From the NCBI GenBank assembly GCA_000165425.1, contig CT868208.1:310001-374000 (forward strand): a stretch of DNA of 64,000 nt. The letters run 5' to 3'. The translations under genes were made by a program, and so were the position numbers. Shown here in pieces: positions 20,189-54,984 of the stretch. The notes beneath the pieces are model-generated. The model made no database searches. It was not told the origin of the DNA and saw only the letters and a list, made by a program, of their open reading frames with translations. How positions within the stretch are numbered: the stretch's first letter is position 1; each line of letters begins with the position of its first letter. The stretch comes from Paramecium tetraurelia. Its lineage: Eukaryota.

Positions 20189-22427
20189 ATGTTTCATTAA
20201 AAATAATCAAATAGACCTATAAAAGAAATTAACCAAGAAAAATGCTTGAATTGCAACAAGTATATAAATTCTACTCTGCTCCGTAATCATCAAGCTATTT
20301 GTGCTGTGACTATATCCCACAAGGATTAAGAAATGTTGGATGAGCATTTAGCTATGCTTATTCAATAAAATAAAATAGAATCTAAGATATTTATGTAGCC
20401 AAACCCCCCTGATACTCTGCAATAATTTACAAATTAACACGAATTTTAGGTCGAAAAGAGGGAAGTTCCAGCTTAAATAAAAAATGTTTTCTAGTCCAAT
20501 AAGCCGATAGCCTAATGTAGAGATGTTAACTATAGACAAGTAAGAATGCATTAAAAAAACCTAGGATTAAATAGTATATAATGGCGATTTAAAATTCTAA
20601 TAGAATGAATTAAAAAATAAACACAACATCTCTATTTAAGAATACGTTGAAAACACCACATAAAAAACGGATTAAAATCCATAATAAACCTAATAAAATG
20701 TGGTATTTAATACAGCCTAATCTTAAGCTTAAGCTTTTAAAAATTTATAAAAATGTGCTATTTAATAAGTGTAATAATAAGATCTTGCTTAAAGAGATCC
20801 TAATTATTAAAAATTTAATCAAATTCAAACTAATCTTGAAAATCACCCAGCAGGGAATCCTTAAATAAATATTTAGCAAAGTAGAAACGATCATATCATT
20901 AATAATAATTAAAATTCAAGAAATTTTCAAGTTCAAAAATAATAATAACCAAGAGCTCTTTTGTAAACTAATCGTATATATTTAAATGAAGAATTTAATA
21001 CAAATAGATAAATATCAGAAGAGAAAAAAATAGAGAATAGTTAATTCGATCCAGATAATTAATTTAATTAATTCAATTAATTTAATGATCTATATATTAA
21101 TTAAATGAATTAAGATTATCCATAAAATAGTCATTATGAAAAACAATCAATAAAGGATAAATATTCCAATTAAGATGCTCATTAATATCATTAATACCAA
21201 GATGTTTAATCGAATTAAAAAGTTATTCCCTCTGATTACTATTAGCTTAGAAAACCTAGAATATTTCAACCAATTCCAAATGAATAATAATATTAAAAGC
21301 CTCCATAATAATAATAATAATATTATTAAGTATAATAATATAAATAATAATAATAATAGTAATAATAATAGTATTAATAATAGTAATAATAATATTAATA
21401 ATAATCGTAATAGTAATAATAATAGCAATAGTAACTGTAATAATAATAATTGTAGTAATTGTAATAACAGAAATAATAATTATAGCAGTAATAGTAGAAA
21501 TAACATTAATAATAAAAATAATAGTCATAATAGTAATAATAATAGTAATAATAGCAGTAATAGTAATAGTAGCAGTAATAGTAGTAGTAGTAATAGCAAT
21601 AGCAGCAAAATTAACAATAATAGAAATAATAGTCATAAAACCAATAGCAATAGAACAATTAATAATTCTAACAACAATAATAATAATAGTAGCCATAAAA
21701 ATAAGCTCAAATTTAATAAGGTCAGAAAGAATAACATTAAAACCCCTAATTATAGCATGATAGATATTCTAAATAACATGTTTAAAATAAAATTAACTCA
21801 GAAGAATCAAAAAATATTGATTTCCAAAATTAGCAATAAATAATAGTTAAATAAATTATTTTAGAGGAAAGACCTCCGATCTAAAAAGTTAGCATTGATT
21901 ATAAAAATATCTAGAATGTTAGAAGGAACGAACCTTATACCTATTAAAAGTACTAAAATAAATAGAGGTATTTATGCATCCTTATAAAAAGTTAAAAATA
22001 ACCTCCTATTAGATAAGAGTAAAATAAAAAAAAGGCTAATTCATCTAATAAGAATAGAACAATAAATGAAGACATAGTTTATAAATAATTTGAATACATA
22101 CCAGGCATGACTCTTACTGATGACCTCGTGAATTAAATGTCTCCTGAAGAAATTTATGAATTGTTTACTCAATTAGATTTAGATAATTAAGTTGGACTGA
22201 CAAGCTAAATAGATTTATTAGATTACAAAAGAGTTTAAATAAATATCACGGATAGTTGCACTATTTGCATGGATGATATATAACCCCAAAAGGAAGCTTT
22301 CGATGTAAGGTTGGATTGCAATCATCAATTCCACTATGATTGTATCAGGTAATGGTTGATGAAATAAAAATTCTGCCCAGTTTGTAAGGAATTTGTAGAC
22401 TTTACGAATTACTAAAATCTTGAATGA
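20189..22427 (+). CDS. Gln-rich RING-H2 E3 ligase-like protein with N-terminal CxxC..HxxxC zinc motif
   Basis: N-terminal CLNC..NHQAIC; one 25-nt intron (20540-20564) restores frame; C-terminal CTIC..CNHQFHYDC..WL..CPVC. Confidence 0.88.
21285..21700 (+). repeat. Imperfect (TAA/TAG/CAA)n trinucleotide tract encoding poly-glutamine
   Basis: Long TAA/TAG-rich run in frame with the RING-H2 gene; appears as poly-N/I/L in the standard-code ORF track. Confidence 0.9.
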
Positions 22428-30684: not shown

Positions 30685-32643
30685 ATGAATAATAAAGAAC
30701 AGATTAGGTCTCCCTCAGCTATTTTTCCATTTCTATCTTAGTTAATGCGAATCTTATACTAATTTAACTTTACAAATACAAATAAATTAATAACATATTT
30801 TATAAGTTAACACAAAACTTTAAGTATATTGTAAGTTTGCGAGTTCATTTTTAGAAGGTTTTTTGAAAATATAATAAATCCACCCAGGCAATATTAGGTC
30901 GAATTATATGTGTATCCAAAAACTTTCCAGAGAAAAGTAGTGGAGTGCAGTTTTTCCTAATAATAAATTATTTTAATATATTATGAATATCAGACAATTA
31001 GATAATATTGTTTCTTGGTTACTCTAAAAATTTAAATATGCTCCTTATCGATGGAATGAACAGCAAGTTCATTATTTTTGTGAGTTTGTTGGATTAACTT
31101 GGGCAATTCCAATTGTCACAGTAAATCAACAATAATTGATTTTAGATTCAAACCATTCCCAAATAAAGATCATAAAACTACTAATAAGAAGTGCCAACTG
31201 ATGGATAAAAGTTTTAAATTCCTTTACTCGATATTTGTACTAAACAATATGAACAGATTTTGGAAGTATGTACCTCCTAAGGTTTATTCAAGATGATTAG
31301 TCATTCAATCGACATAAATCTTTACTATTAGATATAAAAATTAAAGATTTGGTCTCTTATATTATTAAAATATCAGAATTACAGAGAAATTTTGAAAAAG
31401 CTGTATGGATCAAAATTATTTTTTTAATAAAAATGCAAAACTTGCACAGCAGAAATAAGTTGCTCGTGCTCAGTTCTCTCCAATATCATATATGAAATAG
31501 AGATTTATATTAAAAGTATATATGAAATGAAAAGCCTCTAGAATCATAATAGAAAATCATCCATGTTTATTAGTTCAGATATTATAAATCTTTTGTTAAA
31601 ATCCATATCTCATCTACCTTAAATTGATTAATCACCTTTGTTTTGGGATATGGATGACATCAAAGCCTTATTGTATGTAATCAAATTTTAAGATTATTAC
31701 TAACTTCTTTATCAGAATTAGATAGATGGATTTGTGTTGCTATTGTTAGTGAATCCTCCTTTTAAAGGCGAGGATCTATTTCTTAAATGTTTACTTTTAA
31801 GTTAGGAAGGCTCTCAAAAGACTTAAAATAACTTAGTACGCAATAGATCAAGCATGGTGAGAAATACAATGTAGACTGCTAGTAAGTACCATTAAATAAA
31901 TTAATTGGTTAATCTACTACATTATTTGTTGTTAATATTGAGTTTTACTGCATATAAAAATCAAGAGTCTTATAATGAATATAGAAATATTGGATAGAGA
32001 AAGGTGAGTGAGATAAAGTGGTTATCATTATACTACTTCTCAAAAGCAGCCAGAACATTATAATTAAATAGAAGTATTTCATTGCTTAGTGAATCAAGAA
32101 GCTCATCAAAGTCTCTTGAACACAGATTTTAATAGTCAAATATGTAGAGACATAAAACAGAAATGATAGATATTAAAATGATGGTGATTGAAGAAAATCT
32201 AGATGCTAATAAAAAGAAGTAATTTAGTCATCCAAATGTGACTTAATCTGCTAAATCTTCTCCACAATCCTAAAGAAATAATTAGTGGATGCAACTTAAG
32301 AATTATAATACAAAAAAAAGTATTATAGGAAATTAAGTTAATAATGATTTAAAAGAGTCAATTTTGATGTAAAATTAGAAATATATTAATTAGTTAGGAT
32401 TAAGATTAAGATTATATTGATGAATAAGATAGAGATCTATAATATACAGAAACCAATGTTTAAATAGAAGAGGACATAGATTCGATTGAAAATGTTAATT
32501 AATCTTAAGAGGAGCAAATTCAATAATTGCCAAATAAGGAGGAGGACATTGGATAGGATCAACAGATGTAATAATCTGTTCTTATGATATAATCGGTAAT
32601 ATAATAGTATTTATTATTTAATAGTAGTATTTATAATAATAAC

Positions 32644-32675
<32 letters not shown>

Positions 32676-33698
32676 TAACAATAATAATCATAGATAATGT
32701 AAGAATCTGTATTTATGGGATAATCTGCTATGTTACAATAATCAACAATTTTGTAATAATCTTAACTCTTATAACAATCACAAATATTAAATAAATCAAT
32801 TCAAATTAACTAAATTATTGAGGAATAGGATCATAAAAGAGTAGAGTACTTATAGTATTATAAATAATTAGATACAACAGCCATAATCTTTCAAAGAAGA
32901 AATATTATAAAGATTATCAGTATTAAGTTTAACACCAATTTTTGATCCATTTCAATTGTTTTAATCAACTCATTTAAAATTAAAATGTGATGAACAATAA
33001 AAGGTATTTAATTGAATAAATTAATTTCCAATAGCTTAAGATAGTCAATATCCAAGGTGCCTATTTTGGTAGAAGTGATGAATGCACCTTTGCATTCACT
33101 GACCATTCAAAAATTAGTAGTAAGCATTGCCAAATACTCTATAAAGAAAGTATATGAACTTATTAATTCTTCTTAGAAGCCTTTTACTTATTGGATGTAG
33201 GTTCAAAAGGAGGAACCTTTATCAAAATAAATCATAACTTTGTGATAGAAAAAAACATGTCATTTTATATTGGAAATAGATTTGCATTTAAAATATTAGA
33301 AATAAATACTGAAACAGGTTTCTTAGAAGTGAGATATGAACATGAAGGAGCAGCAAAGCATAAGCAAATTTATTTAAAAAAGGGAGACAAGTTTTTGATT
33401 GGAAGAGAAAAATCTAAAAACAATTTTACATTTATGCATTCTCAGTTAATTTATAATTTAATATTTTAGATGCAACAAATTAATGAGTGCAAGGCATTTA
33501 GAAATTAATTATGAGTATAATTTTAAGATTGGGTCTGTAAAACTAATGATTAATGATCTAGAGAGTAAAAATGGAACATGGCTGAGATTAAGTGAAAAAT
33601 AGCTAAATAGTTCCCCTTTTTAATTACAATAAGGATCTAAATTTAATTTATCATTTGAAATTATATTCGATGTAGTTGAATTAGTTTGTGACGTCTGA
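30685..33698 (+). CDS. Protein with two C-terminal FHA domains and possible N-terminal SAM-like segments (5' extent uncertain; may be two genes)
   Basis: FHA1 FGRSDEC..ISSKHC..LDVGSKGGTF; FHA2 IGREK..MSARHL..DLESKNGTW; upstream WNEQQVHYFCEFVGL and WDMDDIKALL; poly-Q at ~32630-32690. Confidence 0.7.
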
Positions 33699-35908: not shown

Positions 35909-38900
35909 TCAGAAAATAATGCAGTCTTTGCATTTCTCGCACTATGGTTTTAATAATGTTGCTTGAAAACATGGTAGTTAAGTTGTATGTTTTTTACAAG
36001 AATAGATAAACTGCACTTAATGGATGCAAACCAACTGCTATGTTTACTCATAGCATTTGACGATTCTTTAGTGATGACATGCTGGGAATATTTTGAGGAA
36101 AGGTTCTTCACAATTAGAACATGGTTTTCCACATTATGACTTACAAGGATGACCACAATTTAGCATCAACTTACAATTTTAAACGCATACGATATTAGCT
36201 AGATCTTCAGAGCATTTAGCTTTCTAAAGATGGCCACACTTTAGAATTATTTTAACTTCTGCTTGACAAGGATCACATTATTAATAGCACTTTTATAAGC
36301 AACTTTAATTGTGACCGCATAAAGGTTTTTTGTTGCAAGGGAACATGCATTTAAGTTCCTTCAAGAAGTTTAAATCCACTTTTTAGTAACAATAAATGAG
36401 TCTGGTATGACCACAAGGTAGGTTAATCTCACATTTTTCATTACATGGAGAGCAAGGCTCATAACATTTTTTTAAGCATGTTACTTTATGGCCACAAGGT
36501 CTTACTTTATTACAAGGTTGATCACATAAGGCTTTAATTCTTTAATTTTATTAAAAACAAGGTATTTATAAGTAATGACCGCAATCTAAAGCCCTATTAG
36601 TCTTAAATTGGCAAGGAGTGCATTCATCTTTTTTGAAACACATATTATAGCAAGGAAATTCATGACCGCAAGTTCTGCGTTTGATACATTGTTGTTTGCA
36701 ATCGTAATTTGATTAAACAAGTTTAGATTGACAACATTCAATATCAATCATATGTCCACAGTTTAATTTAAGCTTGACTATCTATTTACAGGGTGTACAT
36801 TCTTAATAGCACAAATTGGTGCATTGATACTAATGTCCACATTGTCTAGTTTTCATGCACTCTTCTTTACAAACAATACGTTAATTTGATAAATGACATT
36901 TAATCAGATGGTGATGACCACAATCCAAAGGTTTAATAACATCCTATAAGCATGGTTCGCATTTTTCATAGCATAATTACTTACATGGATAGATATGACC
37001 ACATTCTCGAATTTTTTCGCAGGGTTCTTAGCATTGTTAATTTTGATTTTATTAAAAACACTTAATTTATATTTTATGTCCACAATTATGTTATTTTATC
37101 ACCGATTCTTAACAAGGCGAGCATTGCTTTTAATAACATTTTGCTAAACAAGGGTCAGTATGACCACACTATCTTTTTAATATGCATGGTTCTGTACAGC
37201 TGAAACTCTTTATTGACTTTTCACTTGAATGACATTCAAATTTATGAGTATGGCCACATTTGAAAGTGTGATTAATAACTTCTTTACAAGGAGAACAAAC
37301 ATCAAAACATAAATTTTTGCATTCTTAATCATGTTTACATGGCCTTTTTTTTTCACACTTTGCTTTACATTAATGTTATTAATTTTCTTTATTGCATTCT
37401 ACTTCTATTGTATGTCCACAGCCGAGTTTTTTTTTAATCATAAATAGACAGGGAGAACAAGGTTCATAACAATAACTCTTGCAGGCTGATTGATGTCCAC
37501 ATTTTCTTGGTTTTTGACATTACGAGAAACATTTGGAATTTTAAACTATATGATCAGCATCATGACATCTCACCTCAATCTTATGTCCGCATGATAATGT
37601 TCTTTGAACCAACTTTTGACAAGGGGAACAATATTAAGAGCATTTATTAGTGCAAATCTAATCATCATGACCACATTATCTCTTTTTGATACATTGCTAT
37701 TAGCATTGATGCGTTAATATTTATTGCTTTTACTAAGAACAAGAAAACTATGTACTGTGTCCGCACTTCAAATTAGTAAGTACTGGAACTTCACAAGGTG
37801 AACAATCTTAAAAACATAAACTTTTGCATTTATTCTCATGTCCACATGGGAGTGCTTTTTGGCATTTCTATACACAAATTCCGCAATCAACTGAACATAA
37901 TTTATCACAAATATGACCACATGGTAGTTTCTTTTAACACATTGATTAACATTTATGTATATATTGTTCTCTTTCAAAACAAAGAAATTCTGCTTTGTGA
38001 TTACATTTAGAAAATGAGATTTATTGTTTTTCACGACATTTCTAACTTAAAGGATCTGTTCCACAAAGTGCTCTTATTTTATGATTGCAAGGTAAACTTA
38101 AATCAACCATTTCATTGCATTTACATTTATCTCGACAGTACAACTTACACTTGTGTCCACAATCGATAATTCGATCACATAAAAATGAACAGGATTATGC
38201 TGGATGACAATCACTAATGTGACAATCCTTATTACACAAATGATTACAATTTGCAAAAGTCTTTAAACATTTTTTATTACATAGTTTTGGCTTTATTCTA
38301 TTCCAATCATCTGGTTATCTAATTGTTTGCAAGTTTCCATGAGGTATACATTTTGTGTTTATATAATCATTCAAACAATTCTTAGCTTTAGCCAATAGTA
38401 TCATTTTTTACCATGTACTACCCATAGCTGAAGAATTGAAGATAAAATCAAAGTTTCCAAACACATATAAACCAATTCTTGCTCTTGATAATGCAACATT
38501 AATTCTATTATCTATTTTTATAAATCCCAAATTATTTCTGTTGTTGTTTCTCACTAAAGATAGTATCACAATGTCATTTTCTTCTCCTTAATAATTATCT
38601 ACTGTTTATACTTTGACTTTGGGTTAATTAACATTAAAAAACTTCCTTTTTATAACTTAGGCCTGTTTCAAATATAATGTTAAAACACTAATTTAAGTTT
38701 CTTTATAACCACATTTTAAAAGGTACTGCACCATTTCAAAAATCATTTAAGCTTCTTATTTATTTTCTTTTGATCTCTCATCTTGGGCCTCAAGCCATTT
38801 ATGATTAAAAAAGACTAGATCTTTCTCTAAACCTACTATTTCAATGTCATTTTATTTTTAAATATCTTAATGATCTTAATAAGCGTCACCATATATTAAA

Positions 38901-41773
38901 CGTATGAAATCTGCAATTTTGGATTTCATTCTTCTTTATGAGGTCAAAGTTACACTTGGTATCTCATTCAGGAATAATCTTTCAAATAATGAAACATTTG
39001 CTTTTAATTTCTCTTATAAAAAATAATTTTTTATCGAAGGTTTTAATTATTAATGATCTCCTATTAGAATTAAGTGTTGTAAATTTGAAGTCAAAACGCT
39101 TGCAACATGAGATTCCAATACCTCAGCAGCCTCTTCTATAACCATAATTTTTGAATTTAACTTTTATAACTTATTTGTTTATTTAGCTACACCAGTGACT
39201 GTTGCACCAACAATCTTCATACCATTCAATATTTGAATTTCATTCTCATCATATAAATCTTTCAATTAACTAGATTTCTCCATAAATTATTTGTATAAAT
39301 TTCCAAATTTAAGACTATCATTCTAATATTTAAGGCATTCAAGATAAATTAAGATCTCCCTGATATCAGCAGGACTTAAAAACCAAGGATTGCTATTTTA
39401 TAAGCTTAGATAGCCTTTGATATTTTCAATGGTCTAGTATTAATAATGCAATAAATTTTAATTCTAATGATTTTCATTAAATTTTTGAATAGCCGAATCT
39501 ATACCAAGAGAATCAAACTTCATTTCCTTGTAATTATTATTATAAACTGCTTCGTCCTCTGAATCTAAATATTCATCTAAATCATCATCAGAATCACCAT
39601 GCTGCTATTAATTTAAACCAGGAGTTTTTTGTAAGTTTTAAAATTATTAAACGTCTTCATAAAATTGTTTCATTCTGAAGTATTTATGCATTCCATTTAA
39701 ATACCCATTTACTATCGTATTTTCTTCAGGTTTTTATTAATTAATCCAATATTTCACCAAAGTTTCTTCTGAATCCTCGATTAAAAAATCATCTTCATTT
39801 AACTCATTATCCGATAAAAAATTTGAGTATATGGAATCGTATAGCTCCCTCCAATATTTTGATATGTCTTATGGCTTAATTTTATAATCGTAATTTAGCA
39901 TTCTTTAAATTATATCACTTATCTCCTTTTTCAACTTATTGAATTCTCTAAACTCAAAGTCTACTTTCTACCTACACCTAATTTGACATTCTTATAATAT
40001 AGGGTTTTTGGAAGCTCCTCCCAATCTTGCCACATGTTCTTTTGGAACGAACTTTAAAATGTGTTCAAGAAATTAATCCAAAGCATGATTTGTATAACAA
40101 ACTATTAAAATAGGAAAATCATTTTTCTGTAGATTCTAATATAACAATCTTACAGCTAGAGCTCCACAATAAGTTTTTCCAGTTCCTGGAGGCCCTTAAA
40201 TTAAAGCCACTTCTTTCTAGAGCATCATTTTAACTGCACTTAGTTAAGATGCGTCCAAGGAAGTATTTAATTATGGCCATGGCTGTTAAAATATATTAAA
40301 TTTAACCCCTTTATATTGATTACCATATACAAGATCAATATCGAAGTGATAATTTTTATTTAAATATTGGGGGTAGCTTACTTCTTTTTTATTTTCAATT
40401 ATAATATTTTAAAAAGGGATGCTCACTTTTTATTTCAAAGCTTCTAAATAGCAGAGTATTGGTTCAACCAATCCTTCATATTACATAAGTATTGTTTTTT
40501 AAGAAAACAAATTTAATAATTGCATGATTGAAGTATTTGGATCAAGAAATCTAAATTCTAATTGTATTTTTCCATTTTTTTTATATTAAAATTATCTATC
40601 ATCTCTTCTTGTTATGACTCCAAATATTAAAGGAAAACACTCTATATTGGTTAAACAAATTAATGACCCAGAGGATAGTTTTTTTGATTTATCCCAATTA
40701 ATATTCTTCTGCTTTCTGCCATCCATATTAAATTGCTCAACTTAAATCTTCCAACTTAAGTCATTATTATTCATTCCCGCTGATATTAATTCAATATTTT
40801 AATATAATCCTATGTTACTTGTTTTTTCCTTATCTATAAATTCAAATCCTGATTCGTTTAAACTAATAATTGCATTTCTTAACTCTAAAATGTAATCCTC
40901 TCTGATTAGGTTAAAATGATGATCGATGTATCTGTCAAAAGTAATATTTTCTTTAGGAAGAATTTCCAATTTACCAAACAACTGATTGGGTAACTTATTA
41001 TATGAGAAAAATTCTAAGGCTACAGGGTAAATAGGTATTTCCCTCCATTCTAACACATTAGCAGTCTTATATATTTATTTTAAGAAATTATCAAAATCAG
41101 TCAGTATTTTTCCAACTTATTTTTGAAGCTAAGGGTTATATAATTCAATTATTTTGAGTAGATTGTATAAACTAGAGATACTTGATTGCTTTAGAGTTAT
41201 ATAATCATTGAGTTTTAAAGTCCAAAATAATTTGTACATTATTTCCAATTCTTAATTCATGTATTATATTGAGTTCTAATATATTAAAAGTAGAGTGCAT
41301 CTCTCTGTAATTTGAGTATTAAAGCTTTAGCTTCTAAGAATCATATTTATGTAGTTTTATTATCTTGATTCTCCTAAAATCCTCATAAGAGTAATGTATG
41401 ATTAACATTAATTTGCATTAATTCTGAGTTTGGAAAATGCTTCTTCTAGATTGTCTACGCTTTAAAAATATTGACTAATTGTATGAATTGTGTGGTTATT
41501 TTGTGAGATTTAAGAGAACCAATTAAAAAATTCCTCCTGTTTTTGTTATTCTTGTCTTCTTAAGATAGCTCTTTCTTTTTATTCCTATCTTATTCTTCTA
41601 AATTCTCTTCCCTTTGTATTTCTTTGTGATTATTACGACTATTAGTATTATTATTAAGGATGTTACTATTAAGGTTAATATTACTATTATTATTATTGTT
41701 ATTATTATTATTGTCCTTTGCCTTTCTTTTTGTAGTTTTTTCCTTCACCATTTTGCTTTCTATTATTTTACAT
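35909..41773 (-). CDS. ZNFX1: ZNFX1-like SF1 (UPF1-family) RNA helicase with long NF-X1-type zinc-finger array
   Basis: 5865-nt span divisible by 3, no intron seen; [75 protein letters not shown]; then ~25 C(G/N/K)H Cys-rich repeats. Confidence 0.9.
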
Positions 41774-41896
41774 GTTTACTAAAATAATAAATTTAAATAA
41801 TATATTAAAAAAATAGTTGATTGGTTAAAATTTCTAGAGAAAAAAATAGGCTATTTTTTTTAATTATTATTTGATTCTTTTTAATACTAATTTATT

Positions 41897-42904
41897 ATGT
41901 TAATGTGTTGTAATTCAAAAAGATTAAAAACGGGTGAATCCCCAAACAGATCGAAATCAAAACCAAAACAACGAAACAGTGAGATCTGTCCGATGTTTAC
42001 AAAGGAACGATGGATAGAAATTATGAAGAGATCATTTGAAGACTAAGGATATTCAGAATTAAGTTATAATCTTAGACATAATTTTCCACTTGAATTGAGA
42101 TGTCAAGTTTGGTTTTGGCTTACAGAAAAAGCCAGAATCAAAAGTTGTTTATATCAAAAGCTTTAATTTGAATCACCATCTGAGCAATAAATACTTAAAG
42201 ATCTACACAGGAGTTTTCGATCAAAACGAAATACTAAGAGGATTTCTGGTTCTTCTGATTCTAGCTAACCAGATAAGAATTAAGAACAAGGAAAAGTTGA
42301 TTAGCAAAAATTAGACAAGTTGAAAAGGATTCTAATTGCATATTCGAACTTGGATAAGGAAGTTAAATATGTCTAGGGAATGAATTTTATAGCATCTTCT
42401 ATACTTGAACAGCTAGAATAAGAAGAATTGTGTTTCATAATTCTAAATCACATCTTAAACATTCAAAATTATAGAAAAGGTACAACATTATCATATTATT
42501 AAAAGTATTTTTAATGGATATGACAATCCTTGAGATTATTGATAAGCGGATTTAGTTTGAAGTTCCTCTTATTTATAATAAAATGTAAGAATTAAAAGTC
42601 AAACCACAATATTGTTTTGACACTTATATATTTTCATTGTTTTAACTTGTCAGAAAGGAATTAGCACATAGAATAATAGATATTTTCTTATTTGAAAAAG
42701 AATGTAAAATAAATTAAATACAAAAAAGCCATTTTGTAGACTGTTATCATATAATTACTAAAAATGCAATAAGTTGAAATTTTGAAGTGTCAAGATCAAG
42801 ATGAAATGATTATATATATAAGAAATGATCTTATAGAAGACGCCCTCGACAAATTGGATGATGGAAAGGATTATTTATCCTAGTTGCTTTCAATTCATTT
42901 ATGA
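41897..42904 (+). CDS. Rab-GAP TBC-domain protein
   Basis: PLELRCQVW, QILKDLHR (IxxDxxR finger), LKRILIAYS..YVQGMNFIA (YxQ finger). Confidence 0.88.
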
Positions 42905-43082
42905 ATATGCTACATTAATCAGAATATACTTATTGAAAAATATAAAAATAATTAATTATTTTGAAATAAGGACTTGGTAGTTATGATTTAAAAATCATAG
43001 ATTTTTCAAAATAAATCAAAATGGTTTCTAATTTTAAATTATTAATGAGTCTTAATATGCAATAATTAAATTAGTAAATAAT

Positions 43083-44083
43083 TCATATTTCTTTGAGAAT
43101 TTCTTTTGCTTGTTTGTTTTCAATTGAACCACTTTAAAGGTTCAATAACTTTAAAATATCATTAATCAAAAAGTTTAGCGAACTGTCTGATTATTAAATA
43201 GCTTTAGCTCTTAGAATTAAAGGACTATAATCAATATATTATGAAAGACCTTGATTCTGAGAGAGTAGAAAATGTTTTATGAAATAAAATACCTATTTTC
43301 TATATAAAAAAATACTTAAACACTTCTTTCATAATTTGATTAATCACATAATTTTGAGATTATCTATACGAATTAATTATCAACAATAAAACACAAATCC
43401 AAATGTTTTTCTAATAATTTGAAGAGAAAATTTAAAATTGTACAAGAATCTAAACTTAAATAATATTTTATTGAAGCTTGAAATCTTGAACTAAATAATT
43501 AATCAATTAGCCTATTGGTTAATGTTTCTTCTGGCAATTTAGAAATCAATTAGCAAATTTACTCTACATTTAGATTTGAATCTTGTAAATTTATCAACTC
43601 TATTAAATATAGCATAAACTCTTAAGTATAAAAGTTTGCAAATTTATATTTTGATAACATGGTTAATCCATTTAAAGCATAATCAATTAATTCTATATCT
43701 TGAAGTCTAATAACTTCAAAAAAGAAAGGTACAGCTTTCATTTGCTCTTGCTATATAAATTAACTATGGGATTCTCTACATAAAATAACAAGACCAGGTA
43801 TAAGAAGGTTGAAGTACTTCATAATTTAATTATAATTTGAAATGAATAGGTAGGAGAGATCAGAAATAAACCCTTATTTTATTATTTCAAATGTGTTTTC
43901 ACTCAAATTTTGGTAATATTGCTCAGCTTATTCAAAATTTACTTTCTCTAAACCCTCCAAAAATAAATGACTATCATTATTTTCAGCTTTCTTCAAATAT
44001 TGTTGTCTAGTAATGAAAAATTTCAGTTCTCTTTCAAATTTTCTTTTTTGGTGCATAAATTTTTCAACCTTTAATCTTAACAT
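43083..44083 (-). CDS. Hypothetical helical-repeat protein, possibly degenerate importin-alpha/ARM-like
   Basis: Open frame with one ~23-nt intron; basic N-terminus KVEKFMHQKRKFERE resembles an IBB-like segment; amphipathic helices follow. Confidence 0.5.
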
Positions 44084-44380
44084 CTAAGTATAAATAATAT
44101 TTATTTTTTAATTTTGTATTTTGCTTGAATGAAAAAATATTTTAAAACAATTCTGGATGCTTTTGGTGCTAATATAAAAAATTTAGAATACTGTTGCTAT
44201 TAAAATAATATATAATCGAAAATTTTAATTTATCATGAATATTGCTCAAAACTTGATATTTTCTTCCTCCTCTCCAATTTCATTTATAAAAATATATAAT
44301 TTGAGCCAAAATGGAAGATAAGGATCTTAAAATTAGGAGAAATATGATTATTTAAATCCTATTAAAAATCAATAATTTAA

Positions 44381-45289
44381 TATATGAAATATAGATGATC
44401 AAAACATACAACTTTCATATGTAGGTATCATGTATTTAATATTAATGTATGCATCTTCTCCTCCATTTTTTTCAAGTGTTTCTAATGTTTCTTGTATAAG
44501 ATCAGATAGATTTTCATTTTTTCTTTATGAATAATCAATTTTATCTCCAATATTTACTAAAATAAATGAGAATTGAAATATACATCTTTTATTCTTATAC
44601 ATATTCATAACAGGTAGTATTTATCTATAATAAGGAACTAAGGCTTCTCCTATCATTTATCCACTTTTGACTAATTTCTATATTTTCTTTAAGGTAATAC
44701 ACATAATATCATGATTCTTAGTTGCTAAGGCTTCTATTAAAGAATTTCATAAATATGAATATTTACTTTTGATAGGAATAATCAATTAAGGTAAGACTGA
44801 TAATATCTTAGTTTCTCCTTTTTATAATAATTCTTCACATCCATTGACAGCTAAGAATTTATAAGGATCTTCAGTTTCTCTGAGTCCTTCAAAGAATATA
44901 GGAAGATATAAATGATAATCTAAGCATTCAGGTTCACATTTCCAAACGATCTTTCTAACAGCTCCACTAAAATTAACAGCAATTGGAAGATCTCCACGAT
45001 CATAATATTTTTTAAATAGAGTCTATTCAATCATAGGCAAAGCTTAAAAGATCCCTGATTTTGGTACTTTTTATGGAGCTTGACTTTTCTTTGGAGCTAA
45101 TGATGAAGACACTAATAGTCATATAACTTAAATATTAATACTTCCACCTGTCCCTGCAAATTTATTACTAATATTCAATAAATTTGAACAGAATTTACCT
45201 GGTGATCTCTAAGGAGAATGTCCTTTTATTCTTTTATTTGTTGTTTATTACTGCAGCATACTTTATTTATTTTATATTAAATTAATTAT
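44381..45289. repeat. Left arm of ~909-bp inverted duplication (pairs with 51882-52790)
   Basis: Line-by-line reverse complement matches 51882-52790 with a single mismatch (45278/51893). Confidence 0.97.
44399..45259 (-). CDS. PACRG: Parkin co-regulated gene protein (axonemal inner-junction protein), copy A
   Basis: [72 protein letters not shown]. Confidence 0.96.
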
Positions 45290-45666
45290 ATTTTGTTTCA
45301 TTTATAATATTTCTTTTTAAACTCTTCTCACATAATAAAGTTTGGTTTCTCTAGCTATTAGAATTATTTTCGAAACATTTTTAAGAGTTTATTCACATTT
45401 TAATTATTTTCAAAAGATAAAAGCTCAAAAAGTATCCAATTTAAAGGAGCCCACTTTTAAAAGTCAAATTATAGCCGAAAAAACGAATGTATTTGTTTAA
45501 ATTTTAATATTCTTATAATTTTATTCACATCTTGATTATTTACTTTGCATTTCAAATCATATCCAAGTTTTATTCTAGCATTTATTTATTTATAATGATA
45601 ATTCATATAAGTGTTTGAAATTATAAAGTAATTATTAAATTTATTTTATATATATATTACACTAGC

Positions 45667-47185
45667 ATGGAAGTAAACTTTAATTAACTTGACATCCTTT
45701 TAAGATTGATTTAAGAAAGATCTGAGGATATTCGAGTGATGACAACAATAAATCAATAAGTATAAGCTAATTAGAAGACCATTGATATTGAATTCAATTA
45801 AGTTTAACAATCCCTTAGGCAAATGGGATTTAAAGTAATAGCTATGAAAAAACATGATAAACCTAGGTAGGATGAAGAAAACAAAATTTTAGAGTATCTT
45901 TCAAAAATCAATACGCTAAATCTTCCTGAGAGGATGTATATTTATAAATTTTGTTAAACTATAATAAAATTGTTCAAGCCAGAGATGCAGATAGTTAGAT
46001 TTAATTAAAAAGATACAAAAGACCTGTTATTGATGTTTAAATAATATTTCATGGCCGAGAATAATATTGAAATTTTATAATAAATCCAATAACTTATGAT
46101 GGATTAAGAATTTAAAGTAATTTATATATATCATATTGCAGATGACTTCAGCGTTAGTCCTTATAAAGATTTTAGTGAACAAATCTAGGGAAGATTTTCA
46201 TAATTTAATTCAAAGTACTTCTGCAATTGTTATATCAAAAATAAAAGCAAAACTATCTGAGCAACAATAACAATAAAAACATATTATGAATGAATAGCAA
46301 AAATCAACCGAACTACAAGATCCAGGATCAAATGAAAGCCCTAAAACCAAACTGTGGATTTAGAGAAAAGGCAGTAAATAAAGAGAATAATCGAGCTCTT
46401 TGGTTTACTAGAAGCCTACAATTATCCTCAGATCTGTCTCGATGGTAGATAAATTGCTAGTTGCCCAGTCTTAGTAATAATCTTATCAACAACAACTAAT
46501 GTAATAACAGTAATAGATGTACATCAATCCAGAGAGAGAATTAAAATTATAATTAAGAGCACAATAAAAGAAGTTAAAAAAGAAGCTACATTCTAATTAT
46601 AAAGCTATTTTAGATGTGGACTTTGATAATTATTGGGCTATGCATATTATTTTGAAAAAGAAATTCATCAAGCATTCAGATAAATATTGTAATTTAAAGT
46701 TATATATAGTTTTACAAAGAGGTGGATTCTACATTTGGAGTTAATTAAAGTTGTTTAATTAATCTATTAGATAAACCATAAACAACCATCAATTCAAAAG
46801 AGTAGAAAGCATTTAGGCAGATAAATTGACGAATGAGTAAGTTTAAGAGATACATCGAACATATAATACTACTTGTTAATCCCCAAGGAAGCTTCCATAA
46901 TTACCAAATGTACAATTAAAATCATAAAGTCCATAAATCATAAAATAAAATAAGTTTGTCCAAAATTTATCATTTTTACCATAGCTATAATTTAGAAATC
47001 AGCAACTTATCTAACAACAATAATAAGCTTATTCGCAAGTTTCATAGAAACCAATATCATTTTATGATCCAAATAAAGATTTTACTACATCAGCTTAAAG
47101 GTCTAATAAGTCATTAAATCTATCCTAAGACTAGATTCGCCACAAAAAATCTGAGCATAATTCTGAAATAATTCTCTACAAATGA
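45667..47185 (+). CDS. Hypothetical protein, Q-rich/coiled-coil
   Basis: Table-6 open frame MEVNFNQLDILLRLIQERSED... interrupted by several ~25-nt GT..AG introns; TGA at 47183-47185. Confidence 0.6.
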
Positions 47186-47245
47186 TTGATTGAGTAATTT
47201 TAACAATTAATAAATTCTCGTAAATAAATAATTTTAAAATTATTT

Positions 47246-47791
47246 ATGAGACAATAACAAGCTCATATTTAGACTCTCTAAACTATGGCAGCTAGACTCA
47301 GCTCAACAATCTCACATAGGAGGTCTGTAATGAATGATAGTTAGCAAATCTACAATAAACAACAAAATCTTTCAGTTAACCAATCCTTTAACAGTCCAAA
47401 AATCATATCCAACCATTAATCATTTATTATTTCATAGCGAGCAAATTAAAGTATCAGAGACAATGTTTAAAGCGTTCAATGTGCATCTCCATCTTTAAGA
47501 ATAAAAACAGAGATAATAGAGAAAGAGGATAAGAAATAACAATAATTTATTGATGCAACTATGAAATTATTGGCGCAAAACGAGAAATTAGAAAAATTAA
47601 TTTGTGAATAAAATGAAATGCTAGCATACTATAAATAGGACAAGCAGGAATTAGAATTTTAAATAAAGAGATTATCACAGGAAATTATATTTCTCAAAGA
47701 TACAAACTAAAAGAGAGTAATGGCTTTAGAGAGGGAGTTAAAGTAGGTTAAAGGAAAATCTTAACATTAACCTAAAAAATTTCTTAGATGA
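47246..47791 (+). CDS. Hypothetical coiled-coil protein
   Basis: 546-nt open frame; S/P-rich N-terminus then heptad-like LLAQNEKLEKLI..LEFQIKRL..LERELKQ. Confidence 0.65.
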
Positions 47792-48639
47792 ATGTTAATT
47801 ATTTTAAAATCTTAATTCTATTTTATTATTTGAATCATAATCATATTTTTTTCAGTAGGCATTACTTTTTAAACAGAAATTTTTGTTTTTAGAATTAGGT
47901 TTATCTCCAGAATTTAATTACCCAGATTAATATTGGATCTAAAATTAGTTCAACTAGAAAAAATTCATTGAATAAGTTCTTATGTTTCTATGATTTAATG
48001 AGCTTTTAATTCAAAGAAACTAAAAGTTTTTTAAGAATTGACTGGCTTAGGTTAATGAAAATAAAAACTAGAAAGCAAAAAAAACTATATTTGCACCCTA
48101 AAAATTATCCAAATATTAAATATATAAAGAATAATTATGCCATAAATTAATTTGAGGTATTATTTGATGGTGTTACTTTTACAGAACTGGTCTTTCGATT
48201 TTTTTGATTACAAAAATAAATACAAATAGGACAATTGAAAGCTATGAATTTCAACTACCAAAATATCATTAAATTTAAAGCCAAAGAAAATGAAAATAAA
48301 TACTTTCTTAAAATCGATGATTTTCATTTGATTTGATATAGTAGATAATGTCCGTTGTTAATTCGATTTTCCTAAAACAGGATTTGGAATTAAACTCATT
48401 ATAAAAATATTCTTCTGAAATGCAATTATATTTGGAATAGATAATTGCAAGGATACATAGATGCAGTATCAGAAACCGGAGCAATTTAAGAATCTCTTTA
48501 AATGCCAGAAGCAATAAAAATTATGAAATTTATATATAATTATGCAATTCCAAATCAAATTCTCCAGAAGGAGAATTAGCTCAGAAGAGCATGAATTAAG
48601 AAAAACAAAAGAAAGCAAAATGCAGATTGCCTTCCATTC

Positions 48640-49057
48640 TCAATCAGTAGCGTTAGTCTTGATGGGATTTCCGTGAATGAGCACCTGGATGTGAAATTGT
48701 TTTGTAATGTGTTGTCCTTTTGGGAGGATTTTGACGCCCGCAACCTTCTTCGTCATCTATTCTGTCTCGCTGGGAGGAGTTTTGGGAGAATCATTTTTTT
48801 TATATAGTTTTTTTGATTTATTATATTGGGATATGTGTTCAGACCATATGGCCTTACCCCAGGAGTAAGACATTTGTAATTCTTGGCAAGCCTAAAAAAT
48901 GTAAACAAGAGCATAATACTTCTTTTAAAGATTTTTTCTCATACAAAACACGTGTGAGGAACATCACTTTCTCTTTCGGACTTGGACCAACTCTATTAGA
49001 CTATTGTTTCTTCAATTATAGTTCAACTTAATATTTTAAATCAGCGAGAATGGGCAT
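48640..49057 (-). CDS. Small helix-turn-helix (homeodomain-like) DNA-binding protein
   Basis: After a 28-nt intron: EKVMFLTRVLYEKKSLKEACQELQMSYSWGKAIW, an HTH-type SxKEAxxxLxxSYSxxKxI pattern. Confidence 0.55.
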
Positions 49058-49665
49058 GAGTTTATGAAATTTAGGTAAATAATAAAGCTTAATATCCTTA
49101 GATCAACATACTTTTATCTCTCGATAATACGTCATCCAACAAGGTTTTAGTAGCAAATAACACTAATTATTTAGTGTGTTATCATGATCAAAAAAATACT
49201 AAATTCTTTCTCACCTCAAATTCACTTATCTTTCGAAAACACTTCACTTCACTTATTAAAAAGTTGGGAATGACCCATATAACATTGTGATTATGGAGAT
49301 AATATAGACTGAAACCTTTTCTTAAATTAAACTATCTGAATTAGTCTAAATATTTTAAGCACAATTCAACTTAAATCTAGGCAACCCTTATGATTTTCTT
49401 AACTCTAAAAATAGTATTATTTGGTTTAGAATACTGTGGTGAAGTCTCTTTCAACATTTATATTTAAGATTTATTCCCAATCCGAACAAGCATAGACAAA
49501 TTTATTAGAATATCATTTCTTCTAATCAAATTAGTGAATTGATTATACTCTGAATTCTTGTCTATGGATTCAATTTCAACCAAAAACCATAGAGCTGATT
49601 TGGAGGTAAAATTCAGAATGTAAATTAAATTAATTGAAACAGTTAATATATATAGATATAAATTA

Positions 49666-51585
49666 TCATAGTTTTGTAATTAATGATTCAAAAGCTATAT
49701 CTTATTGGAACAATGATGTCTTGAAATTGTTAGAGTTCTTTTAAGGAATATCTTGATCCTACATTAAATCCATCAAATATGTTGTTAAATATAGTAATTC
49801 TTTATCTAAAGCGTTGTCATAAAATGGTATAATAGGAATACCATTTTCTAATTAAAAGCAAAAAGAGTAGGATGCATTATCAATTAATACCATATCTTTT
49901 AAATTTCTATTCCCTATTACTCTTAAATCTTTGACATGTAATCCATCTTATATTACAACACAACTATCCCTGAAAAATCTATGATGGATAAACTTTTTAT
50001 CAGGATCCAGATAGTTTAGTACTTTTTAGGCATAGCATTCATGGGAAGCTGTGAATACAATTATTTCATATTTTTATGACAGAAGCTAAAGCATGTCTTT
50101 ACAATATGGTCTAATATTAATTCCTGCTTCAACGGTTTCTCCTGTAGGAAACTTTATTGTTAACACTATATCACTTGGATCGTCATTTGATTCTTGACAA
50201 TGAATCAGTGTTTCATCTAAATCAAATACAATACTTTTTGAAACTACTTATAAATAAAATATGTACATTTATTTGGAGGTAAATTTACTATTTTTTGTTT
50301 TATCTCTTCTAATTTAGGTTTCTGAGCATCTTTACAAAATTGTAGAGCATGAAAACTTTATTAAATATGGTCCAAATATATTTCGCAGAAGTATTATTAG
50401 GTTTTCAGACTATTATTAAATAGTTGCTTTATTTATGTTTCGAATTTTTTGTCTTTATGAAAAAATCTAGCAAATGACATGTAATATTGAAATTCTTAAA
50501 ATGGTGCTTAAGGTCCTATGCTAACCTTTTACATTTGTGTAAATTTTCTATCTCCTGACAAATTTCTAAGTTTTGATTTTGATTCTCTATGACTTACCAA
50601 TTATTCAGAAACTATAGAATTTTCTTTCGACCTTTTTTAACCATGTAAAGGAGAATTCATTCTTTTTCTATTTGGCTTTGTATTCACTGAAGTATTAACA
50701 GAATTTGAATTCTATTTTTATGGCATGAAATTTGCTCCTCTTGAAATTCTCGTTACATATTTGTTTATTGAAGTTTAATTAACTTATAAAGTATTTGATT
50801 AGACTACATTAACATTCTGATCTTATTCTTGTAAGACTGCTTATGATGCTTATGACAATAATGTTTATTATGTTGTTGAAAGAGATTAGTTTTCTTTAGG
50901 TTATGAAACACTTAAAACTATCTATGGGGTTATTTGTTATGTTTGCTACTAATTTTATTATGAACCTTAATTAAAAAAAGATGTGTTTTTGTATTTTGAG
51001 ATCAATTATTCTAATTTTTAAGTAGCCTCTGCATTTTCTATTTCCTTTATAACTTACTATTATTATGTCGATTCCTCAATAATTATTTATTGCACTTCTT
51101 TTTTACTATTGCTTCTTGATTCTCTTGTCAATTTAACTGTCTTTTATTTAATGCCCAAAGATGCAGCACTTTATCCAAATATAGTTCTTTAAATTAATGA
51201 TGCTTTTTTATTAGTTTTCTTTTCACTTTATTGATCTTAAATCCTTTAGGATTATAGTGGCTCAGTTGTAGAATTATCACTAAAATCATAAGAAATTTTA
51301 CGTTGGCTTTAAAGTCTCATTAGTTCGTTGAGATGCTTCTTATTTTATATTTGCAATAGGCTAACATAAAGAAGATGTCACCAACTAAATTTTATTAAAA
51401 TTATATAGTACCTTGTAACTGGGCTGACCGTTCTGATTTGTTTTATTAGATTTTGCAGAAGGCACTCTTTTTTGTGAATGGGATTTTTATGAAGATTTTG
51501 GTCTCTAATTTACTAAGGCTTACAATAGAGAGCTCGAACTCTATTAGTGGTTAAGATTAACTATTGACATATTTGTGCGAAGCAT
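49666..51585 (-). CDS. FCP1/SCP-family (NLI-interacting factor) CTD-like phosphatase, HAD superfamily
   Basis: VFDLDETLIHC, INIRPY, IIVFTAS..YA..VLNYLDP, HRFFRDSC, VKDLRV, LIDNAS..FQLENGIPIIPF; long low-complexity N-terminus. Confidence 0.93.
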
Positions 51586-51881
51586 GCCTTTATTTTTCAA
51601 AATAATATTATCGTTAGAATATTTATTGTTTAAAATACTTAAAATGAATTATATTATAAGATTTCTTTAACTATTAAAGTTGAACTCGATATTTTATTGT
51701 TGAAAATATCTTTGATGTGTTAGGTTTTGTTGAGAAATCATAATTATAAAGAATGGGGATTTTAGGCGCTTGAAAAATAGTTTAACTTGGCACTCAAACT
51801 TTAAAGTCTGTCAAATAGTTCTTAGTTGAAACACGAAAATAATTATCCAAAATAACTTAAGTGCATGCAACATCAGGTTAG

Positions 51882-52790
51882 ATAATTAATTTTATATAAA
51901 ATAAATAAAGTATGCTGCAGTAATAAACAACAAATAAAAGAATAAAAGGACATTCTCCTTAGAGATCACCAGGTAAATTCTGTTCAAATTTATTGAATAT
52001 TAGTAATAAATTTGCAGGGACAGGTGGAAGTATTAATATTTAAGTTATATGACTATTAGTGTCTTCATCATTAGCTCCAAAGAAAAGTCAAGCTCCATAA
52101 AAAGTACCAAAATCAGGGATCTTTTAAGCTTTGCCTATGATTGAATAGACTCTATTTAAAAAATATTATGATCGTGGAGATCTTCCAATTGCTGTTAATT
52201 TTAGTGGAGCTGTTAGAAAGATCGTTTGGAAATGTGAACCTGAATGCTTAGATTATCATTTATATCTTCCTATATTCTTTGAAGGACTCAGAGAAACTGA
52301 AGATCCTTATAAATTCTTAGCTGTCAATGGATGTGAAGAATTATTATAAAAAGGAGAAACTAAGATATTATCAGTCTTACCTTAATTGATTATTCCTATC
52401 AAAAGTAAATATTCATATTTATGAAATTCTTTAATAGAAGCCTTAGCAACTAAGAATCATGATATTATGTGTATTACCTTAAAGAAAATATAGAAATTAG
52501 TCAAAAGTGGATAAATGATAGGAGAAGCCTTAGTTCCTTATTATAGATAAATACTACCTGTTATGAATATGTATAAGAATAAAAGATGTATATTTCAATT
52601 CTCATTTATTTTAGTAAATATTGGAGATAAAATTGATTATTCATAAAGAAAAAATGAAAATCTATCTGATCTTATACAAGAAACATTAGAAACACTTGAA
52701 AAAAATGGAGGAGAAGATGCATACATTAATATTAAATACATGATACCTACATATGAAAGTTGTATGTTTTGATCATCTATATTTCATATA
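51882..52790. repeat. Right arm of ~909-bp inverted duplication (pairs with 44381-45289)
   Basis: Reverse complement of 44381-45289. Confidence 0.97.
51912..52772 (+). CDS. PACRG: Parkin co-regulated gene protein, copy B (identical to copy A)
   Basis: Same motifs as copy A; introns 52030-52059, 52405-52437 and 52588-52614; 256 aa. Confidence 0.96.
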
Positions 52791-52850
52791 CATTGGAAAT
52801 TATGAATTTATATCGAATCAATATATTCATAAATATAAAAATTATTATTC

Positions 52851-53621
52851 ATGATTTATACAGGAAAAAAGTAAAGAGCTACAGAAAAAGAAACAAAAGA
52901 AAATAAATTAGGATAACTCTAAAAAAGTTAGGCTAAATAAGTAGAATAGTTAACTTTGATATATGATGTTTTTTAAAAAAATCTACATCAATTTGCAGGA
53001 AAATATAGAGATGAAATCTCAAAGAATCCTGATTTTAGAGAAAAGTTTAATGAATTATGCGATAAAATGGATGTCAATCCAATGATGTCGAAAAAGACTA
53101 TTTGGAGTGATTTAGGTTTCGGAGATTTTTATAATGAGTTAGCTGTAAATTATTGATAATATGAAAAGATCAAAATTCTAGATATTTGTGCTAAAAAATA
53201 TGCCATTTATGGTGGAATTACTAAAATCACTGACATAATTGATGAATTCAGGAAGGTTTATGGAATGAAGGTTTCTAAATCTGATATTGAGAGAGCAATA
53301 AATACTGTATCATCCTTGGGGGGTTGCCATATTCATAACAAATATGTGTACACAGTTCCTATAGAGATGAGTCCTGATTTTAATTTGTTATTGGAAGTAG
53401 CAGAAGAAGAAAGGTTTGTGAATGAAAAAATTATGTAAGTGAAGAAAGGTTGGACAAAGGAAAGATTTTATCAAAAAATTTAAGTATTATAAAGGGAAGG
53501 ACTGGTTTGGGCAGATAAAAAAACACAAACTAAAATTGTAGATTATTATTTCCCTTCTCTTTTAAATACATATTTTGATCCTATGAGAAGTTAAATGATT
53601 ATGCAATAATTAAAATAATGA
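52851..53621 (+). CDS. SNF8: ESCRT-II subunit Vps22/SNF8 (EAP30)
   Basis: FAGKYRDEISKNPDFREKF..C..DVNPM.SKK..W..LGFGDFYNELA, DIERAI..LGG, VYTVPIEMS, GWTKER, EGLVWAD..YYFPSL. Confidence 0.92.
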
Positions 53622-53995
53622 GTACAAAATTGGATCTGATCTTATTATCATTTAAATATAATATATTATTTATCTTTATTTAAACAAAATGTTAATTATT
53701 ATAATTCAATATATCCTAAAAGTGAAACTTCTCAAAACCATGCTTGGTGCTAAACTATTTTTAAACTTACATATTACAATGAAATTATCATTTATTAATT
53801 TAATTTACAGATAACTAATTCAACCTAAATATGCATGTATTAAAAACATCTTGAGCAACCTAATTGAAATGGACGTCTAAGATCAGGAAGCAGAATAATT
53901 TTTTAGTTTTTGGATAATAAAAATCAACAAACATTATTCGAAAATTAATTATCATTATATATTGCATTTTCTAAAGTTCCAATTTTTGATTAAAT

Positions 53996-54984
53996 ATGTT
54001 GACAAATAATAGTACTGATTCCATTCTCGAAAGCATTTTAAAAGAAATATTGTCAGAAGTATTAGTTTTAAGTGTAAATATAGATGTTGTAATTACTTGA
54101 ATAGAATATAAGATCGTAAGAGGAGTTGCAAATCATATAAGATCATCTGCAAGATTATGAGAATTTGCAACAGTTAGCAGAAACTATGAAATTTATCATC
54201 AATCTGCTTAGAAAAAAGCTCAAAGGAACTAATAATTAAGAGAAATATTTCAAATGCGAATCAAAATCAGAGAACTATCAAAAATTAGAATAGGCTATTC
54301 AAAAATAAGAATAGGACATAAGAATTCACATTAGGGTATGATCAAATGATATATAGATTTAGATAGGCTTAACATGAGATGAAGATATACATTGATACAA
54401 TGTAATAATAATTAGAGGAATCAGAATAAATTAGAAAAGAATATCTTCAAGAAACAACTAAATTAATTCAAGTAATATTTGAGTTTAATTTAGAAACTTA
54501 AAAAAGAAAATCATAATCTGATTCAACAATTGAAACATTATACACAATCCTAAAAATAATAAACTGCATAAAATTCTAGGAGAGATAGCACATAAACAAT
54601 AAATGTTATTTTCTAAAAATAACCATCTAAATCAAATCATTTAGGAAATAATTAAGAGAAATAAGAACCATGGAATAATAGCTAAATAATTAAATGGCAA
54701 TTAACTTAAAATAATAGTTAAATTCAATTATTAAAAAATAAGGATTCTTAGAGATCATTGACTTAGAGATACATAAAAGCAAAGTACTAATTTATATATA
54801 TAAATAAATAGTAGAAATAAGAGTTATTCTATAGGAATAAGCAAATAGAACTCCATTAATGGCAGTTTTATTTAGAAACTGATGATTAGAATAGGGATCG
54901 AAAAGAAAGAGTTTACATGCAGAAAGTCATCGATCCAAAGGATCCAAAGGTTTCACAGATCAACAGAAATTATCATAAAAATGA
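53996..54984 (+). CDS. Hypothetical coiled-coil protein
   Basis: Spliced frame with YQKLEQAIQKQEQDIRIHIR..HEMKIYID heptads; several short introns. Confidence 0.62.

Follow-up and report, generated by a model that had tools for sequence, protein, structure and literature searches.

Structure of the PACRG pair

We describe a pair of PACRG genes that lie in opposite orientation in Paramecium tetraurelia, in a 64,000-nucleotide stretch of contig CT868208.1 (positions 310,001 to 374,000), which is called the window here and whose own numbering is used. Each gene lies in one arm of an inverted repeat. The left arm (44381-45289, minus strand) and the right arm (51882-52790, plus strand) were delimited by self-BLAST of the window, in which this pair was the sole long near-identical repeat; each arm is 909 bases long and the spacer between them (45290-51881) has 6592 bases. 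An original prediction, made from the sequence, had described the arms as reverse complements with 897 contiguous identical bases and one mismatch in the 5' flank. Comparison of the two arms bears this out, because 908 of the 909 bases match, 897 of them contiguously, and the lone difference, at 45278 (partner 51893), is 19 bases upstream of the ATG. Sequence identity is lost immediately beyond the arm ends.

The right copy of PACRG (51912-52772, plus strand) codes for 256 amino acids in genetic code 6, has a short, PACRGB-like N-terminus and is interrupted by introns at 52030-52059, 52405-52437, and 52588-52614. It is mirrored by the left copy on the minus strand (44399-45259, ATG at 45259, stop at 44399), with introns at 45112-45141, 44734-44766, and 44557-44583. 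The three introns, of 30, 33, and 27 bases, are all GT..AG, the reading frame is intact, and intron 2 was spliced out in an RNA run. The Pfam family ParcG (PF10274) was above its cut-off of 22 bits in both PACRG exon pieces that were searched (120.7 and 139.5 bits). These gene models agree with the prediction that a whole PACRG gene lies in each arm and that the identity spans the three introns and the synonymous sites. They also place the arm ends where they had been expected, since the ATG of the right copy is 30 bases within the arm and its stop ends 18 bases short of the arm end. The two copies are transcribed away from each other, as had been stated.

Inverted repeats of at least 200 bases with at least 85% identity were found twice in 402 kb that were scanned, in stretches picked by homology and hence non-random, and both were PACRG pairs. 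No opposite-strand pairs within 20 kb were present among the listed histone (at least 37) and tubulin (at least 43) matches. Over 43000-54500 Rfam had no match with an E value of 0.5 or lower. Among the contig ends listed, a list that excludes 141 loose ends, none pointed to a germline insertion (IES) in the arms, and no inference is drawn from this.

The same pair on a sister scaffold

The genome with which the window was compared is a macronuclear assembly of 72.09 Mb in 697 contigs. Scaffold C236 of this assembly carries an inverted PACRG pair at 84508-85423 and 93107-94024, each copy being 91% like the window arms, and it is collinear with the window along both flanks and across the spacer. 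We take C236 to be the sister scaffold of the window from the recent whole-genome duplication (WGD). On C236 the same inverted pair surrounds the same spacer. Of the two explanations first proposed, a very recent local duplication is rejected and ongoing gene conversion is supported by an alignment of the four arms from ATG to stop. Besides 789 constant columns this alignment has 78 in which the arms go together by scaffold, none in which they go together by position, and 5 singletons. Synonymous divergence (dS), computed like the non-synonymous divergence (dN) without the columns absent from the window copy, is 0 within the window pair and 0.013 within the C236 pair, and it is 0.38-0.40 between the scaffolds in all four comparisons; dN between the scaffolds is 0.008. 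Silent differences number 0/248 and 4/248 within the pairs and come to about 0.31, corrected, between the scaffolds, and intron differences number 0/90 and 2/89 within the pairs and 15/88 between the scaffolds. Arms that are identical within but diverged between paralogous scaffolds had been named in advance as the pattern that points to conversion, and this is how they came out. All five singleton columns fall on C236. One of them, near 85030, is a 1-base insertion that throws the left C236 copy out of frame; it is either a sequencing error or a fresh mutation, and a C236-type RNA contig has no gap there.

The flanks behave differently from the arms. At 30-80 bases upstream of the ATG, the flank of the left copy (45290-45339, minus strand) resembles its positional counterpart on C236 (z 5.9 against shuffles) and the flank of the right copy (51832-51881, plus strand) likewise resembles its own (z 3.0), whereas the two flanks within a scaffold do not resemble each other (z -1.1 in the window and -0.4 on C236). 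Past the other ends of the arms a residual likeness between left and right was seen in the window 20-70 bases after the stop (z 2.4, p 0.018), but this was one of 36 tests and is not taken as evidence. Arms that are alike by scaffold and flanks that are alike by position are exactly what an old pair would show if its cores underwent conversion and its flanks did not. Thus, it is very probable that the inverted PACRG pair is older than the recent WGD and that its arms have been kept alike by gene conversion.

Two independent recent duplications, one per ohnolog, at the same site and in the same orientation, would also give near-identity inside each pair and sharp ends. However, both upstream flanks are positionally homologous right to the arm edge, and the proportion of retained P. 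tetraurelia ohnologs in a single-gene duplication is given as 0.0011 (PMC10195154), which makes about 1e-6 for both before the same site is even demanded. Parallel duplications are therefore highly improbable. It could also be argued that purifying selection alone keeps the copies identical, as dN between the scaffolds is just 0.008. Yet a quarter of the silent sites, and the introns as well, have changed between the scaffolds while 0/248 and 4/248 silent sites differ within the pairs. This silent-site pattern already refutes selection alone, to which we give next to no credence. Exchange of the whole region between the ohnologs is ruled out by the spacer, because six neighbouring exon stretches have dS values of 0.30-0.96 between the window and C236.

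Both copies in sequencing reads

The original prediction had named an assembly artefact as the alternative. In such an artefact one copy would have been placed twice, or two moderately diverged copies would have been merged into one consensus. Contigs of four public runs (three DNA and one RNA, out of 24 listed) were aligned to 45290-54600, that is, to the spacer and one arm; the three DNA runs, X1, X2, and X9, come from three studies. In all three DNA runs one contig goes from the right end of the spacer into the arm and another joins the left end of the spacer to the arm on the opposite strand. Thus, the arm start is joined to two different spacer ends, and both of these inner-junction contigs are at the single-copy depth of the spacer. 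Of the four junctions that were to be looked for in reads, the two inner ones were therefore found while the two outer ones did not appear. Both junction contigs end at 51923 in all three runs, 30 bases beyond the mismatch, which is as expected if the mismatch at 45278/51893 is real. The doubled depth that two copies should give was seen in X2 (about 1.8x that of the spacer) and in X9 (about 2.1x) over the arm contig 51968-52340, which had no other letters, but it was erratic in X1. Where other letters were listed over the arm, 25 in total, every one is an allele of the C236 copies, and there was no third sequence at 93% likeness or more. At 52603 X2 and X9 keep different C236 alleles, so contigs drop close variants; the C236 arms differ at this place, where the two runs show different letters, and hence these arms were not simply collapsed. 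In the RNA run window-type and C236-type PACRG contigs are present at similar depth. The label of this run names another organism, but no difference from the window was seen in its window-type contig, which therefore does not come from a second species.

Both copies probably exist as assembled, and mis-assembly is unlikely. An artefact would be in keeping with the missing outer junctions, with the thin coverage of the right flank in the DNA runs, with the 1-base insertion in the left C236 copy as a possible sequencing error, and with the redundant small scaffolds noted for this type of assembly (PMC3464196). Against it are the two inner junctions in three studies, the real mismatch, the roughly doubled depth in two of three runs, the lack of a third sequence, and the same layout on C236, which was assembled separately and whose arms differ at 5 places. 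We regard it as very unlikely. In each of the three DNA runs the depth at 52800-54600 is a small fraction of the spacer depth, whereas the gene in this stretch is covered by the RNA run; this probably reflects a filtered contig and was not used as evidence.

Since the assembly is macronuclear and the tract ends lie near the gene ends, another explanation is that germline arms which are diverged are made alike during macronuclear development, or that the arms recombine so that both spacer orientations coexist. We know of no mechanism for such somatic homogenisation of the arms. X2 and X9, the larger two of the DNA contig sets, whose germline DNA content is not on record, had no divergent arm version, and fixed differences persist between the C236 arms. 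Somatic homogenisation thus has a very low probability.

Several points weigh against an old pair that is kept alike by conversion. The outer junctions are absent from the contigs, and DNA cover to the right of 52790 is nearly nil in all three DNA runs. The loss of one of two close variants from contigs leaves room for hidden differences between the arms, the depth in X1 is erratic, 3.7x at one arm contig and about 1x at another, and depth does not give a copy number. By shuffle z-scores the 3' flanks have no positional signal and there is no clear one further upstream either. The PACRG dS of 0.38-0.40 is at the low end of that of the neighbouring stretches, although one stretch of spacer gene 1 is lower still. 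In a metagenome scan with the neighbouring phosphatase there were 48 pattern matches and 6 relatives at 48-54% identity, and none of these 6 loci had PACRG. That conversion takes place in the germline and that the copies are kept for dosage (below) are likewise proposals. Finally, late exchange between Paramecium ohnologs has been reported (PMC10195154; 10.64898/2026.06.20.733495), so that a given scaffold split may be younger than the WGD and the age leans on the published date.

Age and origin

The recent Paramecium WGD has been put at 320 million years (My) ago (PMC10195154). Judged by the four-arm comparison, the pair cannot be younger than the split between the window and C236 scaffolds. 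Two further scaffolds, C169 and C58, are paralogous regions from an older duplication and have many genes in common with the window. PACRG was absent from these regions (80 and 50 kb searched; the best matches were short, with E 0.001 or worse), so the pair arose or arrived after the older duplication or was lost there. C80 and C435 were also considered as an older paralogous region but were dropped because the phosphatase alone matches. An origin through a staggered-break inversion is unsupported, since in C169 gene 1 of the spacer lies the same way round relative to the left flank as in the window, and gene 2 relative to the right flank. Compared with the window, C169 (467000-488000) and C58 (519000-537000) have undergone several old inversions of local extent, one with a breakpoint within the spacer of the window.

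Proposed mechanism

We propose that a gene for the short form of PACRG was duplicated locally and inverted ahead of the most recent WGD. The WGD would then have put the pair onto two chromosomes, as the shared layout, spacer, and position-specific upstream flanks indicate, and each pair would have been homogenised separately on its own chromosome, which is the pattern seen in the arms. Presumably a germline double-strand break in one arm was occasionally mended with the other arm, 7.5 kb distant, as template, either without a crossover or with an even number of crossovers. Selection on the protein would hold the coding core alike so that the core remains a substrate, while the flanks escaped; such escape would account for where the tracts end, 26-30 bases upstream of the ATG and 5-18 bases past the stop. 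If the pooled divergence within pairs, 4/496, is at equilibrium, a rate of about 250 conversions for each mutation at a site, with a lower bound of about 100, would be enough. By our own arithmetic each site would then have undergone 15-40 sweeps on each chromosome since the scaffolds split. With recombination in P. tetraurelia given as 420 cM/Mb (PMC13085455), a tiny ectopic share of breaks would suffice.

Arms of this kind could also flip the spacer. Its orientation is identical in the two sister scaffolds and agrees with that in C169, and no flipped spacer was seen across the window, C236, and the older paralogous region, which is weak evidence. Contigs cannot span a 909-base arm and so are unable to test flipping. 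If 4% of conversions are accompanied by a crossover, a figure cited in PMC9731477, each lineage should have flipped about once, and the probability that the two lineages would still be in the ancestral orientation is about 0.25-0.4. The shared orientation therefore neither shows nor excludes flipping.

PACRG subtype and dosage

The other PACRG genes in the genome, on C113, C136, and C2, all have a long N-terminal extension; the one on C113 is similar to that of Tetrahymena PACRGA (E 6.8e-15). The paired gene lacks a PACRGA-type extension, and its 256 amino acids compare with 249 in Tetrahymena PACRGB and 319 in PACRGA. In Tetrahymena PACRGB (PDB 8g2z chain 4S, 249 amino acids) the N-terminus is short and 102 residues follow the matching segment, as in the paired gene. 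Assigned by length and by elimination, the paired gene fits the PACRGB subtype. PACRG A and B are described as alternating along the inner junction in Tetrahymena (10.1101/2022.09.30.510376). Four copies may have been kept for dosage, PACRG being an abundant protein at the inner junction of the ciliary doublet. CFAP20 has four strong matches in the genome, and the counts of 4 B-like, 3 A-like, and 4 CFAP20 genes make this reason plausible, being consistent with it and not proof of it.

Genes in and around the spacer

The spacer, collinear and in the same orientation in C236, had been described as a 6.6-kb block of four genes. Three of these are backed by conservation in C236, while the fourth (about 49190-49590; 49188-49590, minus strand) is a diverged open frame and a possible gene. 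Gene 1 (45667-47800, plus strand, end approximate) has no Pfam family, is covered by RNA contigs, and has an ohnolog on C236 and an older paralog on C169. Gene 2 (48640-49060, minus strand, limits approximate) is small, with 92% DNA identity to C236 and 80% to C169, and it has a conserved element downstream. The third (49666-51585, minus strand) codes for an NLI-interacting-factor-like (CTD-type) phosphatase (PF03031, E 1.7e-52) and has an ohnolog on C236. Beyond the right arm an EAP30/VPS22-family gene (52851-53621, plus strand) starts 79 bases past the PACRG stop and has no counterpart at the matching place on C236.

The region of gene 2 was compared among the window (48510-49100, minus strand), C236 (88058-88757), and C169 (467043-467646). 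About 60 bases near 48790-48860 are almost invariant across the three copies, silent sites included, and about 130 bases past the stop are conserved despite a broken frame in C169 and contain a short hairpin. This conservation suggests an RNA element, one that has no Rfam match. C236 has an extra spacer gene at 88800-90570, which is present too on C169 and C58, and the window has 650 unrelated bases at 47850-48500 instead; by this comparison of regions, its absence from the window is an ohnolog loss. Elsewhere in the window, an open frame of 2001 amino acids (35909-41914, minus strand) has helicase-like motifs and a long Cys/His repeat tail, and we take it to resemble a ZNFX1/NFX1-type helicase. 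The remaining self-matches of the window are low-complexity triplet-type repeats at 21280-21750, 32580-32700, and 41620-41715.

Known systems and significance

By the sequence features that were tested, the PACRG pair is like inverted gene pairs under concerted evolution, while the status of a flip/flop region is not shown for it. It is of a known kind but unusual in its age, in its replication by a WGD, and in its occurrence in a genome with few single-gene duplicates. The Drosophila Amy and Hsp70 inverted pairs are, as in Paramecium, close and divergently oriented copies of a highly expressed gene with homogenised coding regions and diverged flanks; they are much younger and have not been replicated by genome duplication. 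The Saccharomyces flip/flop region (YNL018C/YNL034W), as described in PMC9731477, resembles the Paramecium pair in that gene-holding inverted arms surround unrelated genes and are converted, with paralogs closer than orthologs. In that description 4.2-kb arms with fast-evolving genes surround 24 kb, are at least 17 My old, and the spacer orientation is polymorphic, whereas the Paramecium pair has 0.9-kb single-gene arms around 6.6 kb, codes for a very conserved protein, is very probably older than the WGD, is present twice, and shows no flip. The mammalian BMP8A/B, DDX19A/B, and TUBG1/2 pairs, according to PMC2720389, share conversion that extends into introns and lasts more than 100 My, but there only segments are homogenised, whereas in Paramecium the whole gene is and the control is a WGD sister scaffold rather than another species. 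Gene conversion between ohnologs, as reported for Paramecium (PMC10195154; 10.64898/2026.06.20.733495), is the same kind of process in the same organism, but it is described between chromosomes, whereas in the PACRG pairs the exchange would be within each chromosome and the ohnologs stay diverged. Our literature searches, mostly outside subscription journals, found no publication that deals with this locus.

Comparison across species is the usual basis for inferring concerted evolution, and here the WGD supplies two replicates in one genome. Since about 14 species share this WGD, up to about 28 replicate pairs could be used to measure, over a very long time, where tracts end and how often conversion and flipping occur. 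For work on cilia, knock-down or knock-out of this form of PACRG must allow for four copies. Recent single-gene duplicates have been counted as pairs with Ks below 1, with a median of 28 per aurelia genome and 52 in P. tetraurelia (Gout et al. 2023, PMC10195154). The published table lists no genes. The PACRG pair would pass this filter twice despite its probable age; thus, some 'recent' gene duplicates in Paramecium may be ancient. A more far-reaching proposal, which we put forward as a doubtful one, is that conversion has gone on unbroken in all aurelia species for about 300 My, in parallel on the two chromosomes and with no inversion fixed, that the pair arose in restoring the PACRGB dose after the copy from the intermediate WGD was lost, and that it represents a class which has been overlooked. 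On this view a sizeable part of the low-Ks 'recent' duplicates, of which a few dozen are counted per genome, would be ancient converted pairs. If there is such a class, the real rate of single-gene duplication in Paramecium would be lower still.

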